Positions 1 to 4,227 of a stretch of DNA of 4,427 bases are shown piece after piece (the stretch's first letter is position 1; each line of letters starts with the position of its first letter). Both the position numbers and the translations under genes were made by a program. Origin of the DNA: a virus (taxonomy: Duplodnaviria > Heunggongvirae > Uroviricota > Caudoviricetes); IMG/VR virus record IMGVR_UViG_2547132269_000006. One strand, 5' to 3'. Below the pieces are notes generated by a model. That model ran no database searches, had not been told where the DNA came from, and worked only from the letters and a program-made list of their open reading frames with translations.

Positions 1-184
1 TCGGGCTGGCTACTTAACCCCTGACCACTGTCTGGTAACTCGAAGTATTGCCCTGCGTTCTGTGGGGCGGGGTGGGTTTATGGATACAATTCACAAATTA
101 AAATTTAACTGGTCAACATGTTTATTATTAAATTTGTAATTGCGAGCTGTTGCATCAGTCCCAAAATGGGACTACTATACAGTT

Positions 185-487
185 ATGAAGATTATCTCAG
201 TTAAAACACTCAGGGATTTTTGGGCGGAGAATCTTGATGCAGAACAACCGCTAAGGGCATGGGGGGATGAGGCGGCAAAAGCTGACTGGAAAAGCCCAGC
301 AGACATTAAGGCACAATACCGAACGGCCAGTATATTGAAAAACCGGCGCGTGGTATTCAACATAAAAGGTAATCATTACCGTTTAATTGTTGCAATTGCG
401 TATCAGCGAGGATGGGTATTTGTTAAATTCATCGGAAACCACAAGGAATACGATGCTATTGATGCTGATACCATCAAACTGGAGTAA
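185..487 (+). CDS. higB: HigB-family type II toxin (RelE/ParE-fold mRNA interferase), 100 aa
   Basis: ATG at 185 gives MKIISVKTL..., which resembles the N-terminus and the core VFNIKGNHYRLIVA...HKEYD motif of E. coli HigB (YgjN) as I recall it. Stop TAA at 485-487 lies 2 nt before the next ATG, with the toxin first and an HTH antitoxin second, as in HigBA. The TTG at 140 in the ORF track adds 15 residues with no family support. No clear SD precedes 185. Confidence 0.85.
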   Translation: MKIISVKTLRDFWAENLDAEQPLRAWGDEAAKADWKSPADIKAQYRTASILKNRRVVFNIKGNHYRLIVAIAYQRGWVFVKFIGNHKEYDAIDADTIKLE

Positions 488-489
488 GC

Positions 490-849
490 ATGAACATCAA
501 ACCTATTCGTACAGAGCAAGATTATGAAGCCGCGTTGCGTGCTGTTGAACCCATGTTCGACAATGAGCCCGAAATTGACACGCCTGAGGGGGATTTTTTT
601 GAGGTGATGTGTTTGCTAATAGAGGAATATGAAAAAAAACATTATCCCATTGAGCCACCATCCCCAATTGAAGCTATAAGATTTCGCATGGAACAGCAGG
701 GGCTGACTGTGAAAGATTTGGAACCCGCAATTGGGAAAAAAAATCGGGTTTATGAGGTGTTGAATGGTACCAGAAGCCTTACGTTACCAATGATTCGCCG
801 TCTTCATAATCAATTTGGTATCCCCCTGGAAAGCCTGGTTGGATTATAA
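490..849 (+). CDS. higA: HigA-family antitoxin, XRE-type HTH DNA-binding protein, 119 aa
   Basis: GGAG at 481-484 sits 5 nt upstream of ATG 490. The C-terminal LTVKDLEPAIGKKNRVYEVLNGTRSLTLPMIRRLHNQFGIP resembles the HTH region of E. coli HigA (YgjM) from memory. It is tightly coupled to the upstream toxin gene. Confidence 0.85.
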   Translation: MNIKPIRTEQDYEAALRAVEPMFDNEPEIDTPEGDFFEVMCLLIEEYEKKHYPIEPPSPIEAIRFRMEQQGLTVKDLEPAIGKKNRVYEVLNGTRSLTLPMIRRLHNQFGIPLESLVGL

Positions 850-864
850 AATCTGCTAGTCATT

Positions 865-913
865 TGCCTGATGCTCGTTCCAGAAAAGGAATGCATCAGG
901 CAGTTTTGTTTTT
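865..913 (+). terminator. Putative intrinsic terminator for the higBA transcript, placed between convergent genes
   Basis: Perfect 10-bp inverted repeat TGCCTGATGC (865-874) / GCATCAGGCA (893-902) with an 18-nt loop that can pair internally (TTCC/GGAA), followed on the + strand by GTTTTGTTTTT (903-913). The right arm overlaps the last codons and stop (896-898) of the minus-strand repressor gene. No U-tract follows on the minus strand. Confidence 0.5.
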
Positions 914-1288
914 CTGCCGCAGTAACTCTTCAAGTTTCCGTTTATAGAAATCGCGTTTTTGCTCCATATCACGAATGATCTGCTCTGCGTCGCTTTGAGG
1001 TAACTCATCTAAAAGCGATATGATTTTTCGTTGTTGTTCTGTAAGTTGCGGTTGGTTGTCATTACTGGATACAGCCATTTTATCGCCGAGAGTTTCTTCT
1101 TCCATAAAGAACCAATGGACGGGATGTTGTGAGAGCTCTGCTAATTTTTCCAGTTTATCCATTCTTGGCATCACGCCTTTCAACCAACCTTGCACGGATT
1201 GGGGTTTTACACCAAGACGTCTTCCCAGCTCTGACTGGTTTATATTCAATTCCTGCAACACCTGCTGAAGGCGTTTTACAAAGATCAT
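896..1288 (-). CDS. Prophage repressor, short CI/DicA/RacR-type XRE HTH protein without an S24 peptidase domain, 130 aa
   Basis: ATG at 1288 (minus) is preceded by GAGGGG at 6-7 nt spacing; the ORF-track start at 1294 is a GTG two codons upstream. The N-terminal HTH (QSELGRRLGVKPQSVQGW) and an acidic/basic helical C-terminus (LLDELPQSDAEQIIRDMEQ...KRKLEELL) match DicA-like repressor architecture as I recall it. It is divergent from a Cro-like gene across an AT-rich operator region. Confidence 0.8.
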   Translation of the reverse strand: MIFVKRLQQVLQELNINQSELGRRLGVKPQSVQGWLKGVMPRMDKLEKLAELSQHPVHWFFMEEETLGDKMAVSSNDNQPQLTEQQRKIISLLDELPQSDAEQIIRDMEQKRDFYKRKLEELLRQKNKTA

Positions 1289-1426
1289 CACCACCCCTCG
1301 TAAACTAGTTCCGCGATCCTACAGAAAAAATTGATAAGTGGCATTACAAATAGAAGTTGAAATTTAAATTTAAATTTAAATTTAAATTTGTAATTATCGG
1401 TGTCATCGTAAAGTTCGGAGGGAAAC
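1289..1426. promoter_or_regulatory. Divergent promoter/operator region of the lysogeny switch (PRM-like leftward, PR-like rightward)
   Basis: A 138-bp AT-rich intergenic region lies between the divergent repressor and Cro-like genes. It contains inverted octamers ATTACAAA (1343-1350) / TTTGTAAT (1387-1394), the (AAATTT)5 tract, and a candidate rightward extended -10 TGtAATTAT (1389-1397) with a -35-like TTTAAA about 17 bp upstream. The promoter hexamer assignments are inference only. Confidence 0.6.
1360..1389. repeat. Perfect tandem hexamer repeat (AAATTT)x5, self-complementary
   Basis: Read directly: five uninterrupted AAATTT units from 1360 to 1389, bounded by G on both sides. Confidence 0.95.
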
Positions 1427-1687
1427 ATGCAAAAAAGTACTCAAGTGAAAATCCTGTCAATAATGAGCCAATCAGAATTAGGGCGTCGTCTTGGTAAAAC
1501 ACCGCAAACCATAAGTGGGTGGTTTAAAAAACGAGTGCCAGCGGAGGAGGTTATACCAGCATGTGAGGCGCTTGACTGGGGAGTAACTCCGCATGAATTG
1601 CGCCCTGATAAATACCCTAATCCAACCGATGGTTTACCTGTTGAGTATCAGGCTAACGCACAAGCAGCGGCGGGAGTTGATTCATGA
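1427..1687 (+). CDS. ydaS: Cro-like HTH regulator, YdaS family, 86 aa
   Basis: GGAGGG sits 6 nt upstream of ATG 1427. The HTH (SQSELGRRLGKTPQTISGW) is followed by a ...TPHELRPDKYP motif that I associate with YdaS/Cro-like proteins. It is the first gene of the rightward operon, opposite the repressor, and its stop overlaps the next start (ATGA at 1684-1687). The symbol is assigned by family resemblance and synteny with Rac racR-ydaS-ydaT. Confidence 0.75.
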   Translation: MQKSTQVKILSIMSQSELGRRLGKTPQTISGWFKKRVPAEEVIPACEALDWGVTPHELRPDKYPNPTDGLPVEYQANAQAAAGVDS

Positions 1688-2121
1688 AAATCAAGCATGA
1701 GCACATCCGCATGGCGATGAATGCGTGGCTGCTTTATCCGAGGGTAGGGCGCAAAAAAATCGCTGATGATATAGCGACAGCATATTTTGAGCTTGAAATG
1801 ACTTATCCACCAATGCATGACACCTCTACGACAGAGGGTATTGGATTGAACATACAAAATATTTTTCGCTGGCTTGAAAAGGATACGCCTGATGCTGTTG
1901 AAAAAATTCAGGCACTAATTCCAGCTATCCTGACTGTTCTTCCGCGTGAACTGCGTTATCACCTCAGTATTTTTGACACTGTTGAGCGCCGTGCATTACT
2001 GGCGGCCCAGGAAGCGTTGAGCACGGCAATTGATGCGCATGATGATGCAGTCCAGGCAGTTTACCGGAAAGCGTATTTCAGCGACGGCGGGTCATCCGGC
2101 GAGTCTGTTGTGGTGCATTGA
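1684..2121 (+). CDS. ydaT: CII-like regulator, YdaT family, 145 aa
   Basis: The N-terminus MKIKHEHI... and the internal QNIFRWL...LIPAIL..LPRE motif match my recollection of YdaT. The start is translationally coupled to the Cro-like gene (ATGA overlap), with GGGAG 7 nt upstream. Confidence 0.8.
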   Translation: MKIKHEHIRMAMNAWLLYPRVGRKKIADDIATAYFELEMTYPPMHDTSTTEGIGLNIQNIFRWLEKDTPDAVEKIQALIPAILTVLPRELRYHLSIFDTVERRALLAAQEALSTAIDAHDDAVQAVYRKAYFSDGGSSGESVVVH

Positions 2122-2141
2122 TATTTATGCCAGACCCCTGC

Positions 2142-2174
2142 TGATTCTGTTGATTGGGGAATCACAGAATATCA
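2142..2174. promoter_or_regulatory. Overlapping inverted repeats in the 89-bp gap between the CII-like and O-like genes
   Basis: ATTCTGT (2144-2150) pairs with ACAGAAT (2164-2170), and inside it TGATT (2151-2155) / AATCA (2160-2164) flank GGGG. There is no downstream T-tract, so this is more likely a protein-binding site or weak attenuator than an intrinsic terminator. Confidence 0.3.
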
Positions 2175-2210
2175 CCAGAGGATGGTTCGTCACAAGATGA
2201 TGAGGCAATT

Positions 2211-3221
2211 ATGGCCGCATTACCATACATGCAACTGTACATAGCTGATTACCTGGCTGACACCATGCATTTGTCCGCAGAGGAGCACGGTGCGTATTTG
2301 TTGCTGATGTTCAATTACTGGCAAACAGGGAAACCAATACCTAAAAACAGGCTGGCAAAAATTTCCCGTCTGACTAACGAGCGATGGGCTGATGTGGAAC
2401 CATCCTTGCGGGAGTTTTTTTGCGATAACGGCGATGAATGGGTGCATCTTCGGATTGAGGAAGATCTGGCATCAGTCAGGGAAAAATTGACCAAAAAATC
2501 AGCCGCCGGAAAAGCATCTGTTCAGGCCAGAAGAAGCAGAAAGGAAGCATATGTTCAAACAAAACAAGAGAGAGATTTAACAGGTGTTCAAACAAATGTT
2601 GGTGTTGTGTTTGAACATGACGCAAACACAAAAGCAACTAATAAAGATACAGATCTAAAAGAATTAAACCCCACACATAACGTGCGTGAACGCGAGAGTA
2701 TTCCGACCAGTGAGTCGCATGGTGCGCCGTTGCAGACAGCCGAACCTGAATACCTGGACGGCCTGAGCGAACCGATCGGGAAATTTTCGATGACTACTGT
2801 CTGGCAGCCGTCGCCGGATTTTCGACAACGGGCAGCAGTGTGGGGTATGGCTCTGCCTGAGCCGGAATTTACACCTGCTGAGCTTGCCGCATTCCGGGAT
2901 TACTGGATGGCGGAGGGGAAGGTTTTCACGCAGGTTCAGTGGGAGCAGAAATTTGCCCGCCACGTGCAGCACGTCAGGGCACAGGTAAAACCAGTCAGCA
3001 AGGGGGTAAGCCATGCAGCATCAGGTGGCACGGCATCACGGGCAGTTCAGGAAATCCGGGCAGCACGCGAACAGTGGGAACGTGAAAACGGATTTATCAG
3101 CAACGGAAACGGCCTGGAAGCTGTGGGAGCTTATGGGGGAGGTGTATTCGAACCGCTGGACTCAGAAGAACGGGGCCGCACCTTCGAAGCTCTGGATTGC
3201 CCAGATTGGTGCGATGACTGA
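2211..3221 (+). CDS. Phage replication initiator (O-like): DUF1376-type N-terminal domain plus DnaT-like C-terminal domain, 336 aa
   Basis: ATG 2211 has GAGG 5 nt upstream. The N-terminus (YMQLYIADYLADTMHLSAEEHGAYLLLMFNYW) fits the DUF1376/YdaU pattern. The C-terminal GKFSMTTVWQPSPDFRQRAAVWGMALPEPEFTPAELAAFRDYWMAEGKVFTQVQWEQKFARHVQ closely parallels the E. coli DnaT C-terminal domain as I recall it. Codon usage in the last 70 codons is good (all Leu CTG, all Glu GAA). The TTG at 2154 is an unsupported extension. Confidence 0.8.
   Translation: MAALPYMQLYIADYLADTMHLSAEEHGAYLLLMFNYWQTGKPIPKNRLAKISRLTNERWADVEPSLREFFCDNGDEWVHLRIEEDLASVREKLTKKSAAGKASVQARRSRKEAYVQTKQERDLTGVQTNVGVVFEHDANTKATNKDTDLKELNPTHNVRERESIPTSESHGAPLQTAEPEYLDGLSEPIGKFSMTTVWQPSPDFRQRAAVWGMALPEPEFTPAELAAFRDYWMAEGKVFTQVQWEQKFARHVQHVRAQVKPVSKGVSHAASGGTASRAVQEIRAAREQWERENGFISNGNGLEAVGAYGGGVFEPLDSEERGRTFEALDCPDWCDD
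2550..2635. repeat. Iteron-like repeats inside the O-like gene linker, a candidate replication origin
   Basis: TGTTCAAACAAA occurs exactly at 2552-2563 and 2585-2596, an inverted copy TGTTTGAACA lies at 2608-2617, and a related CAAACACAAAA at 2623-2633. An AT-rich stretch follows (2637-2669). The position between the two initiator domains mirrors ori-lambda inside gene O. Confidence 0.4.
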
Positions 3222-3675
3222 ACAGCAAATCCGTCTGGTCTGCCGTCAGTGCATGGACCGCTGCCGGGCGGGTGAAACGTGGCCCCCGGACCTGGCTGAG
3301 TTTGTTGCGCTGATTTCGGAGAGTGGGGCAAATCCATTTGGTCTTACGGTGGATGCCGTGATGGAAGAGTACCGGCGCTGGCGCAATGAATCCTGGCGAT
3401 ACGACGGGAGTGATAAATACCCGTGGCCACAGCCTGTGCTGTACCACATCTGCCTCGAAATGCGTACCAGAGGGATTGAGCGCCAGATGACGCAGGGTGA
3501 GTTAAAACGACTTGCGGAACGGCAACTGACGAAATGGGCAAAGCATGTTGGTAACGGGATGAGTGTTCCGCCAGTGCGACGACAACTGGAAGGGGCGAAA
3601 CACCCGCAAGGGCCAACGCCAATTGAACGGCTGAAACAGGAATACGAACGCCGGAAGGCAGCTGGTTTTCTTTGA
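3214..3675 (+). CDS. Lambda-P-like replication protein (DnaB helicase loader family), 153 aa
   Basis: The sequence resembles the C-terminal two thirds of lambda P as I recall it (PPDLAEFVA vs PSPGQFVAW; a shared YPW motif; TQGELKRLAERQL vs TDAELRRKAADEL). ATG 3214 overlaps the O-like stop (ATGACTGA), which suggests translational coupling. An upstream in-frame ATG at 3013 with a GGGGG SD exists, but that frame has poor codon usage within the overlap. Confidence 0.7.
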   Translation: MTEQQIRLVCRQCMDRCRAGETWPPDLAEFVALISESGANPFGLTVDAVMEEYRRWRNESWRYDGSDKYPWPQPVLYHICLEMRTRGIERQMTQGELKRLAERQLTKWAKHVGNGMSVPPVRRQLEGAKHPQGPTPIERLKQEYERRKAAGFL

Positions 3676-3708
3676 ATCTGAGAAACGATTTTGTCGGAGG
3701 AAATTTTA

Positions 3709-4227
3709 ATGGAAACCGTATTTGACGCACTGAAAGCACTGAAAAGAGCCTCTTCACAGGTAGTGGCGGCCCGCCTTGGAATCAGCCGTGAAGATGCGGT
3801 CAACGAACTGTGGAAACTGAAGCGCCGCGGTGAAGCGGATAACAAGGGGTCGATGTGGTGGCTGATTCAGGCTGGTGAAAGTGAACCGGTGTCACCGGTA
3901 CCGAAAGTGACAGCGCAAATGCTGACTGAGGCGATTGAACAACATGGCCCACAAACGGCGGATGAGCTGGCACTGATGTTCGGGATTACCTCCCGCCGGG
4001 CGAATTCATCGCTGGCCATGGCAATCAGCAAAGGGCGTCTGATTCGCGTGAATCAGGGCGGTAAATTTCGTTACTGCATACCGGGCGCTGATTTACCGGC
4101 AGAGCCGGAAGCTGCATCCGTAGCGGAAACCGATGGTAAAGCCTTTCCTCAGCCAGCAGGTGTTGCGTTACCAGTTCGGGAAGCAGAAACGCTACGGCCT
4201 TCGATATGGACATCCGATAAATGCTGA
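3709..4227 (+). CDS. Hypothetical phage protein with two tandem winged-helix-like modules, 172 aa
   Basis: GGAGG sits 8 nt upstream of ATG 3709; the TTG at 3691 in the ORF track is less likely. Two repeats of a helix-turn-helix plus wing pattern are visible ([37 protein letters not shown]...MWWL and [43 protein letters not shown]). This may correspond to a DUF1627-type protein, but I cannot confirm the family. Confidence 0.7.

Follow-up and report, generated by a model that had tools for sequence, protein, structure and literature searches.

What does a toxin-antitoxin pair do beside the repressor gene of a prophage, in the place where phage lambda carries its exclusion genes rexA and rexB? 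The question is raised by a 4,427-nucleotide (nt) stretch of viral DNA (Caudoviricetes; IMG/VR record IMGVR_UViG_2547132269_000006), the whole of which is referred to here as the window. Annotation of open reading frames (ORFs), Pfam domains and PHROG families indicates that the window comes from a lambdoid prophage and holds its early region, with regulatory and replication genes. An earlier interpretation made from the letters alone (the sequence-only reading) had placed a higBA pair at 185-849, in a slot equivalent to that of rexAB and convergent with the repressor gene. These coordinates were correct, as was the orientation, higBA being on the plus strand and the repressor gene (896-1288) on the minus strand. 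The answer that we favour, on balance and by a narrow measure, is that positions 150-913 form a complete and functional type II HigBA module of the YgjN/YgjM type, carried as fixed cargo in a Qin/Rac-like immunity module and serving in defence. The identity and architecture of the module, taken without that role, are proposed with high confidence.

By homology, the first gene (185-487) encodes a HigB-family toxin of the PF09907 type, represented in Escherichia coli K-12 by YgjN/HigB. The predicted protein matched PF09907 over profile positions 1-74 of 74 (E=1.4e-32; 112.2 bits against a cut-off of 27), and its residues 1-93 aligned with the solved structure of K-12 HigB (5IFG/5YCL; E about 3e-7), to which it is 27% identical. 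An alignment of 10 sequences, including K-12 HigB and ORF22 of phage BP-4795 and spanning 27-88% identity, revealed nine family-invariant residues, all of which are kept (F58, N59, G62, N63, R66, H86, E88, Y89 and D90). The C-terminal H-x-E-Y-D motif (H86-x-E88-Y89-D90) is intact. In SehA of Salmonella, the substitutions H88A and Y91A, at the positions equivalent to H86 and Y89, were reported to abolish toxicity (bioRxiv 10.1101/2024.07.09.602740). All homologues of this HigB are about 100 amino acids (aa) long, and the RefSeq name of the toxin is already 'type II toxin-antitoxin system HigB family toxin'. According to a recent review, members of PF09907 are ribosome-dependent mRNases with toxin-first gene order and autoregulation through palindromes (PMC11980606).

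The second gene follows the same pattern. HigA, predicted to act as antitoxin and autorepressor, has a toxin-binding region towards its N terminus and a helix-turn-helix (HTH) domain towards its C terminus; Pfam assigned HTH_3 to residues 63-115, and residues 6-112 aligned with residues 24-132 of K-12 HigA (5IFG_B; E=3e-9). The toxin gene stands first, its stop codon (485-487) being separated by 2 nt from the higA ATG at 490, and the end of higB contains a GGAG (481-484) a short way upstream of the higA start. Both protein names given in the sequence-only reading are thereby upheld by the match over the entire PF09907 model, the HTH_3 domain and the alignments to the K-12 proteins. In one IMG/VR contig whose block is otherwise 99% identical (L029, about 3806-3994), higA encodes no more than 62 aa, although higB is intact; the cause is a sequencing error or else a disruption of the antitoxin that arose naturally.

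The setting of the pair was examined in the chromosome of E. coli O26:H11 11368, which is 99.3% identical to window positions 1-4190. In the annotation of the matching locus, higBA has int-exo-dicB-DicF-ydfC on its left; on its right come cro and the replication, Q-region, lysis and terminase genes. With prophage genes on both sides, higBA is well inside a lambdoid prophage and not in the chromosomal core, as had been supposed from the window. The adjoining repressor is DicA/Gifsy-like, with an HTH_3 domain and without an S24 self-cleavage domain.

That this place corresponds to the one occupied by rexAB in lambda, as the sequence-only reading had claimed, is supported by repeated operator-like sequences. 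The window has exactly two copies of the 14-mer listed in Table 1, one at 128-141 and one, in the repressor-cro region, at 1382-1395 (0.07 expected by chance). It has partner half-sites at 90-98 and 1343-1351, and the repeat family of 79-149 recurs in 1343-1406. A search for the 9-mer ATTTGTAAT with one mismatch allowed found three copies, a count that was equalled in 40 of 200 shuffles and, unlike that of the 14-mer, is not significant. Because copies of the 14-mer lie both left of higB and in the repressor-cro region, an operator of the leftward type (OL) is indicated to the left of higBA. We infer that 79-149 contains OL and the leftward promoter (PL), operator function and promoter alike being read from the sequence. 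The 79-149 sequence is kept among the variants of the immunity cassette, and related prophages have their repressor about 95 base pairs (bp) from the conserved left flank. Together with the prophage context and the conserved flank, the operator copies support a location of higBA between OL/PL and the repressor gene, i.e. the lambda rexAB position.

How firmly the pair belongs to this place can be judged from its relatives. All complete E. coli genomes with this repressor (148/148) have higBA contiguous with it, and neither occurs without the other; no case of this immunity type without higBA was found in E. coli genomes at either megablast or blastn sensitivity. Among the variants on viral contigs, positions 1 to about 1630-1929 have remained a single block of 90-99% identity, whereas the replication genes to its right are swapped. 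Ratios of nonsynonymous to synonymous substitution rates (dN/dS) among the immunity-cassette variants were 0.08-0.22 for higB and 0.02-0.06 for higA, after omission of values for some distant cassettes that were saturated or came from spurious matches (dS = -1, 'stop'). Both genes are under purifying selection. The complete linkage, the co-divergence to about 90% identity and the low dN/dS thus suggest that higBA is old, selected and fixed in the immunity cassette, and not a recent insertion.

Base composition adds little to the history of the pair. The sequence-only reading had judged the region by eye to be richer in A+T than the replication genes and had seen in this a sign of separate acquisition. 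A profile of G+C content (GC) bore out the first part, with 43.2% in higB, 43.1% in higA and 51-56.5% in the replication genes. The second part did not hold, since the repressor gene (42.5%) and the upstream region (42.4%) are equally low; low GC was rejected as a mark of separate higBA acquisition on this ground. The step in GC, from about 44% to about 56%, lies near 2650, inside the DUF1376-DnaT gene, and not at the edges of higBA.

A separate origin is indicated by other evidence, namely by copies of the cassette elsewhere. HigB relatives at 70-88% identity, all of 100 aa and each followed by a HigA of 119-121 aa, occur in unrelated settings: on IncFII-like plasmids (beside hok and partition genes of the parA/parG type), in the chromosomal core between ybaB and recR, and on another phage-like element. 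Homology between these cassettes and the window extends from the -35 box to the higA stop codon and no further. Such sharp limits in plasmid and chromosomal-core copies suggest that the pair is mobile cargo of separate origin. In 29 other diverse viral contigs, the neighbours of the cassette with Pfam matches were tail sheath, portal, terminase and baseplate genes, and no HTH or S24 repressor family was found among the nearest neighbours on each side.

The slot, in turn, has had other occupants. In prophages with the same left flank it is empty (O157:H7 Z563 and E2348/69; L016 and L018 3579-3673) or holds relBE (E. coli O18; L017 3682-4160). Since related prophages have the slot empty or filled with relBE or higBA, it is a recurrent cargo site, and one that has captured toxin-antitoxin modules of the RelE superfamily more than once.

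Expression of the pair would begin at a promoter that is closely packed against the toxin gene. The palindrome AGTCCC-N5-GGGACT in the promoter spacer is perfect and is found once in the window (0.04 expected by chance). Its arms are invariant and its centre variable across plasmid, chromosomal and phage cassettes. A set of 39 distinct upstream regions was compared, drawn from relatives down to about 50% protein identity. The order TTGnnn, palindrome, TAnnnT, 6-7 nt and ATG was seen in 24 of the 39, with 12-15 nt from the palindrome core to the ATG, too little to accommodate a ribosome-binding site. Of the other 15, all but two have a 17-20 nt insert with a Shine-Dalgarno sequence, which brings the distance between core and ATG to about 30-33 nt. 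As the upstream regions are either short and devoid of a Shine-Dalgarno sequence or carry one in an insert, the higB mRNA is probably leaderless and would start at or next to A185. That HigB relatives (L004-L075) fall into these two upstream classes also suggests that the toxin has changed repeatedly between translation with and without a leader.

In K-12, binding of HigA or HigBA to promoter palindromes is established (PMC11980606). The closest relatives of the cassette have a second palindrome about 30 bp upstream of the first. In the immunity version, the 14-mer of the phage operator is found there instead, 9 bp upstream of the higBA -35 box.

At the other end, the pair is closed by a hairpin. 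The structure has a 10-bp outer stem and an inner TTCC/GGAA stem, with a folding energy of -23.5 kcal/mol (z = -4.4), and none of 200 shuffles folded as well. It overlaps the last codons of the repressor gene, whose stop codon lies in the 3' arm. The sequence-only reading had described a hairpin shared by the two genes and a distance of 47 bp to the repressor stop codon; the hairpin does lie between higA and the repressor gene, but the distance is 46 bp and the sharing is not borne out. A U-run follows the hairpin on the plus strand only, with none on the minus strand, and this argues that the hairpin is a terminator of higBA and not a symmetric, two-way one. It is outside the mobile cassette, as homology with the other cassettes stops at the higA stop codon. 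An automatic terminator scan did not call the hairpin, the scan being limited to loops of 3-8 nt and the loop of this hairpin being larger.

From these parts, a mechanism can be proposed. In the lysogen, the cassette would be transcribed from its own promoter, independently of the promoter of the repressor gene. HigA, alone or with HigB, would bind the palindrome and thereby autoregulate the pair, while the hairpin and U-run would block antisense transcription into the repressor gene. As long as it is supplied, HigA would keep HigB inactive; should the supply fail, HigB would arrest translation, presumably by ribosome-dependent mRNA cleavage as in the analogous K-12 HigB.

We tentatively propose, at a likelihood just short of even and by analogy with other systems, that the main benefit would be exclusion of other phages from the lysogen by abortive infection. 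The trigger would be an infecting phage that shuts off host gene expression or otherwise depletes HigA, and cells that lost the prophage would inevitably be killed as well, as a by-product. Prophage-borne toxin-antitoxin pairs repeatedly prove to be defences. Exclusion is favoured for this reason and because the slot holds proven systems, namely RexAB of lambda and the three-gene HigBAC of the H-19B type. Its functional plausibility is independently supported by the work of Mets and colleagues on HigBAC (Mets et al., 2024; bioRxiv 10.1101/2024.02.24.581848).

Several points weigh against a defensive HigBA module of this kind. The higBA promoter has 7 of 12 consensus matches and was missed by an automatic promoter scan, and the start of transcription given here is a prediction. 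With regard to the toxin, a preprint reports that SehA, a PF09907 relative from Salmonella, inhibits RNase III and does not cleave mRNA; mRNA cleavage can thus be suggested for the present HigB only by analogy. The antitoxin has no chaperone-addiction (ChAD) tail and there is no chaperone, so that the published sensing route of HigBAC cannot operate here. Likewise, the toxic peptidase part of the B protein of the PD-lambda-2 defence system is absent. A location in the immunity region is not a general property of the cassette, and on plasmids the cassette adjoins partition and hok genes, a classic addiction context. Finally, no paper on this pair turned up when the literature was searched by RefSeq protein accession.

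The plasmid context leads to the alternative of pure addiction or stabilization, by which cells or recombinants deprived of the prophage or the immunity block would be killed or arrested by the pair, with no effect on incoming phages. Apart from the company of partition genes and hok, a gain in plasmid stability was the original hig phenotype (bioRxiv 10.1101/2024.02.24.581848), and the linkage with the repressor in 148/148 genomes would be expected under this explanation, deletions of the pair being counter-selected. However, integrated prophages are rarely lost, and the integrase of the O26 host prophage is frameshifted, which leaves little excision to guard against. In addition, the other known occupants of the slot, RexAB and HigBAC, target incoming phages. 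Addiction as the sole function is therefore considered rather unlikely.

A more elaborate form of the defence proposal would take the upstream edge of the cassette into account. It holds that the cassette has been rewired in this prophage: the distal HigA operator would have been replaced by the operator of the repressor, which would co-control a leaderless toxin-antitoxin transcript, and the two-gene HigBA would act as a chaperone-independent abortive defence against heteroimmune phages that is tied to lysogeny. We regard this combination as distinctly unlikely; an influence of the prophage repressor on higBA expression is in itself unlikely.

The scatter of the cassette over unrelated sites (the ybaB-recR core, tail, portal and terminase neighbourhoods of viral contigs, and plasmids) would also be expected of a selfish passenger that is hard to lose, inserts wherever it is tolerated and benefits neither phage nor host. 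Low dN/dS does not speak against it, being expected of a self-maintaining module as well. Nevertheless, the pair is still intact in immunity blocks that have diverged by about 10% in nucleotide sequence, the slot has repeatedly been occupied by toxin-antitoxin or exclusion genes, and the upstream edge is remodelled next to the phage operator. These observations make a passenger without function quite improbable.

Another possibility is that the pair belongs to the circuitry of the lysis-lysogeny decision, with HigA or convergent transcription modulating the repressor or PL, or with the repressor controlling higBA through the upstream operator. The arrangement invites such an idea, for PL and the higBA promoter stand back to back with the operator between their -35 boxes, the distal HigA palindrome of the closest cassettes has given way to that operator, and transcription converges on the repressor gene. 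Yet a search of the window found the HigA palindrome as a single copy, with none in the rightward operator (OR) or near PL; a strong terminator separates higBA from the repressor gene; and related prophages work with the slot empty. A regulatory role is thus very improbable. Least of all can the pair be a PD-lambda-2 system, a negligible prospect despite strong matches to the PADLOC A and B models, since it is refuted by gene content, the peptidase domain and the third gene both being missing.

The features of the window are collected in Table 1.

Table 1. Positions of genes and of control and terminator sequences in the window; a minus sign denotes the complementary strand.
Feature	Position	Strand	Remarks
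Conserved flank	1-78	-	Outside the immunity-specific block
AT-rich control region	79-184
Predicted OL/PL region	79-149		Operator-like half-sites TTCACAAAT (90-98) and TTAAATTTGTAATT (128-141)
Candidate leftward promoter		-	-35 TTGACC (116-111), -10 TGAATT (93-88)
Predicted higBA promoter	150-178	+	-35 TTGCAT (150-155), 17-nt spacer, -10 TACTAT (173-178), 6 nt, ATG
Palindrome AGTCCC-N5-GGGACT	157-173		Predicted HigA (or HigBA) operator in promoter spacer
higB	185-487	+	100 aa
higA	490-849	+	119 aa
Gap with hairpin			46 bp, between higA stop (849) and repressor stop codon (896-898)
Hairpin and U-run	865-913	+	Hairpin 865-902, U-run GUUUUGUUUUU 903-913; read as higBA intrinsic terminator
DicA-like HTH repressor gene	896-1288	-	RefSeq start; alternative GTG start at 1294 from ORF listing
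Divergent control region, OR-type	1289-1426		Between repressor and cro-like genes; operator copies 1343-1351 and 1382-1395; (TTTAAA)4 tract
cro-like gene	1427-1687		Pfam name 'YdaS'
CII-like gene	1684-2121		Pfam name 'YdaT'; PHROG 'CII-like transcriptional activator'
Rightmost genes			DUF1376-DnaT replication gene, then lambda-P-like gene, then DUF1627 gene

Several of these features deserve comment apart from the toxin-antitoxin pair. Bases 1-78 (up to 1-103) match 3,025 of 5,426 complete E. coli genomes, are 93-99% conserved and are never annotated; to the right of this flank the sequence becomes specific to the present immunity type. In three other prophages (L016, L017 and L018) the segment immediately precedes ydfA/DUF1391, the first of the early-left genes, with the leftward promoter region on its other side. 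It is probably, on the minus strand, the transcribed leader of the early-left (ydfA/ydfC-DicF-dicB) operon. No significant fold was found for the minus strand of 1-84 (z = +0.28), nor did Rfam provide a match; a Rfam search of the whole window with E up to 1 returned none. In the O26 context, the only RNA matches were DicF and a sub-threshold STnc100, both outside the window.

The -10 box of the candidate leftward promoter reads TGAATT in the window, TAAATT in O26 and TAGATT in other variants. Loss of the A at its second position may have weakened the early-left promoter of the window. In the divergent control region, positions 1357-1394 read TTGAAA(TTTAAA)4TTTGTAAT, while all 17 related sequences with the motif (O26 and IMG/VR contigs) have (TTTAAA)2, and all 148 E. 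coli matches are 12 bp shorter across this stretch. The additional 12 bp increase the spacing of the operator half-sites from about 31 to about 43 bp and would exchange the likely rightward -35 box TTGAAA for TTTAAA. The tract looks like a slippage variant and could alter the switch.

Further to the right, Pfam attached the labels 'YdaS_toxin' and 'YdaT_toxin' to the genes at 1427-2121. Position and PHROG annotation identify these as cro-like and CII-like regulators of the prophage, and the two genes were rejected as a toxin-antitoxin pair for that reason. Relative to O26, the window has a mosaic joint at about 4190, where identity falls from 99.3% to 89.9% and about 1.24 kb is missing; the absent DNA comprises the end of the DUF1627 gene, DUF977, DUF4406 and the start of a gene with an RseB domain. 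The same O26 prophage has a second toxin-antitoxin pair (L001 23411-23973), composed of a RelE/ParE-family toxin and a ParD antitoxin and placed further right, before the Q/lysis region.

An understanding of the higBA pair may be of value for several reasons. Should it exclude other phages, it would amount to a natural, minimal equivalent of HigBAC, which has three genes and is found in the same slot, and a comparison of the two would reveal what a chaperone and an antitoxin tail add to the sensing of phages. For Qin/Rac-like prophages, the pair is one more indication that cargo of the RelE superfamily is captured repeatedly between OL and the repressor gene. The pair is carried by many Shiga-toxin-producing strains of serogroups O26, O103 and O45, many of which also have HigBAC on a second prophage. 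How susceptible these pathogens are to phages, and how stable their prophages are, could therefore be influenced by the pair.

The slot and the type of module have precedents, and a comparison with them defines what the window contains. The rexA-rexB genes of lambda are expressed in the lysogen and act by abortive exclusion. They resemble higBA in their location, with OL/PL on one side and the repressor gene on the other. In sequence, however, they are unrelated to it; the rex genes are not a toxin-antitoxin system of this type, and they are co-transcribed with cI from the repressor promoters. No such co-transcription is seen for higBA, which is on the strand opposite to the repressor gene and has its own promoter and terminator. 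Abortive exclusion by RexAB is also cited by Mets and colleagues (bioRxiv 10.1101/2024.02.24.581848). The relBE pair of the O18 prophage (L017) is likewise a RelE-superfamily pair with the same left flank and with a prophage repressor gene of the same family; it differs in that its toxin is of another family, its antitoxin gene comes first, and it is co-oriented with and immediately downstream of the repressor gene.

A HigB-like component is part of PD-lambda-2, a system that confers defence against lambda-vir (Vassallo et al., 2022; PMC9519451). The window pair shares with it a HigB-like first gene and a HigA-like N-terminal part of the second gene, and the PADLOC models PD-Lambda-2_A and PD-Lambda-2_B matched with E=4.9e-39 and E=1.7e-42, respectively. 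In that system, however, toxicity resides in the B protein, which bears a peptidase, and defence depends on a third gene (PMC9519451). Membership was rejected, as the B match covers 1-119 of 402 profile positions, with no peptidase family and no third gene. Downstream of higA there are 46 bp with the terminator hairpin and then the convergent repressor gene.

The lambdoid-prophage system HigBAC, described from E. coli NT1F31, occupies a variable defence locus equivalent to that of rexAB and protects against lambda-vir and Bas25 (Mets et al., 2024; bioRxiv 10.1101/2024.02.24.581848). It is triggered when a phage tail protein displaces the ChAD tail of the antitoxin from the chaperone (bioRxiv 10.1101/2024.02.24.581848). 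A HigB-type module in the rexAB slot has thus already been published, and the window pair is not a new kind of system; the search by RefSeq protein accession found no paper on the two-gene, convergent version in this slot. In the Stx phages BP-4795 (L002 4001-5342) and H-19B (L003), genes for HigB, a 218-aa HigA and a SecB-like protein follow directly after cI on the same strand. The HigB of BP-4795 has 95 aa, and its third gene, ORF20, matches the SecB-like model PD-T4-9_C (E=3e-11). Judged by the predicted proteins, the three-gene content of H-19B and BP-4795 matches the published HigBAC. In the H-19B record, these three genes are unannotated.

HigBAC and the window pair have in common a PF09907 HigB (43% identical), a HigA core (43% identical to residues 9-120 of the 218-aa HigA of BP-4795) and the same slot by the repressor gene and the leftward early genes. 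HigBAC, however, has a C-terminal HigA extension of about 100 aa and a SecB-like gene, and the window pair has neither. Membership in HigBAC was rejected because the window HigA ends at residue 119, where the extension of the BP-4795 protein begins, and because the window has no ORF for a SecB-like chaperone. HigBAC also follows cI directly and in the same orientation, in contrast to the convergent window pair with a promoter of its own, and the operator half-sites are TTCCC/GGGAA in HigBAC and GTCCC/GGGAC here. A HigBAC-type module is present in 88 of the 5,426 genomes. In O26:H11 11368 and many other strains, the window-type HigBA and a HigBAC-type module are found at separate loci (NC_013361.1 1226101-1226765 and 1568978-1570330, respectively). 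With palindromes that differ by one base per half-site (GTCCC against TTCCC), the two systems may be insulated from each other.

The closest precedent in kind is HigB/HigA of K-12 (YgjN/YgjM; PDB 5IFG, 5YCL and 6KML). It agrees with the window pair in the PF09907 toxin, the toxin-first order and an antitoxin with an N-terminal region and a C-terminal HTH domain; both proteins align over their full length, and the promoter holds palindromic operators in K-12 (PMC11980606) and a predicted one in the window. The K-12 pair differs in being chromosomal and outside a prophage immunity region, and its HigA has 138 aa as against 119 aa. The subfamily represented in the window has its own GTCCC-N5-GGGAC operator and a probably leaderless promoter. 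On the content of its predicted genes, the window pair is best filed as a plain two-gene HigBA of the K-12 type (PF09907).

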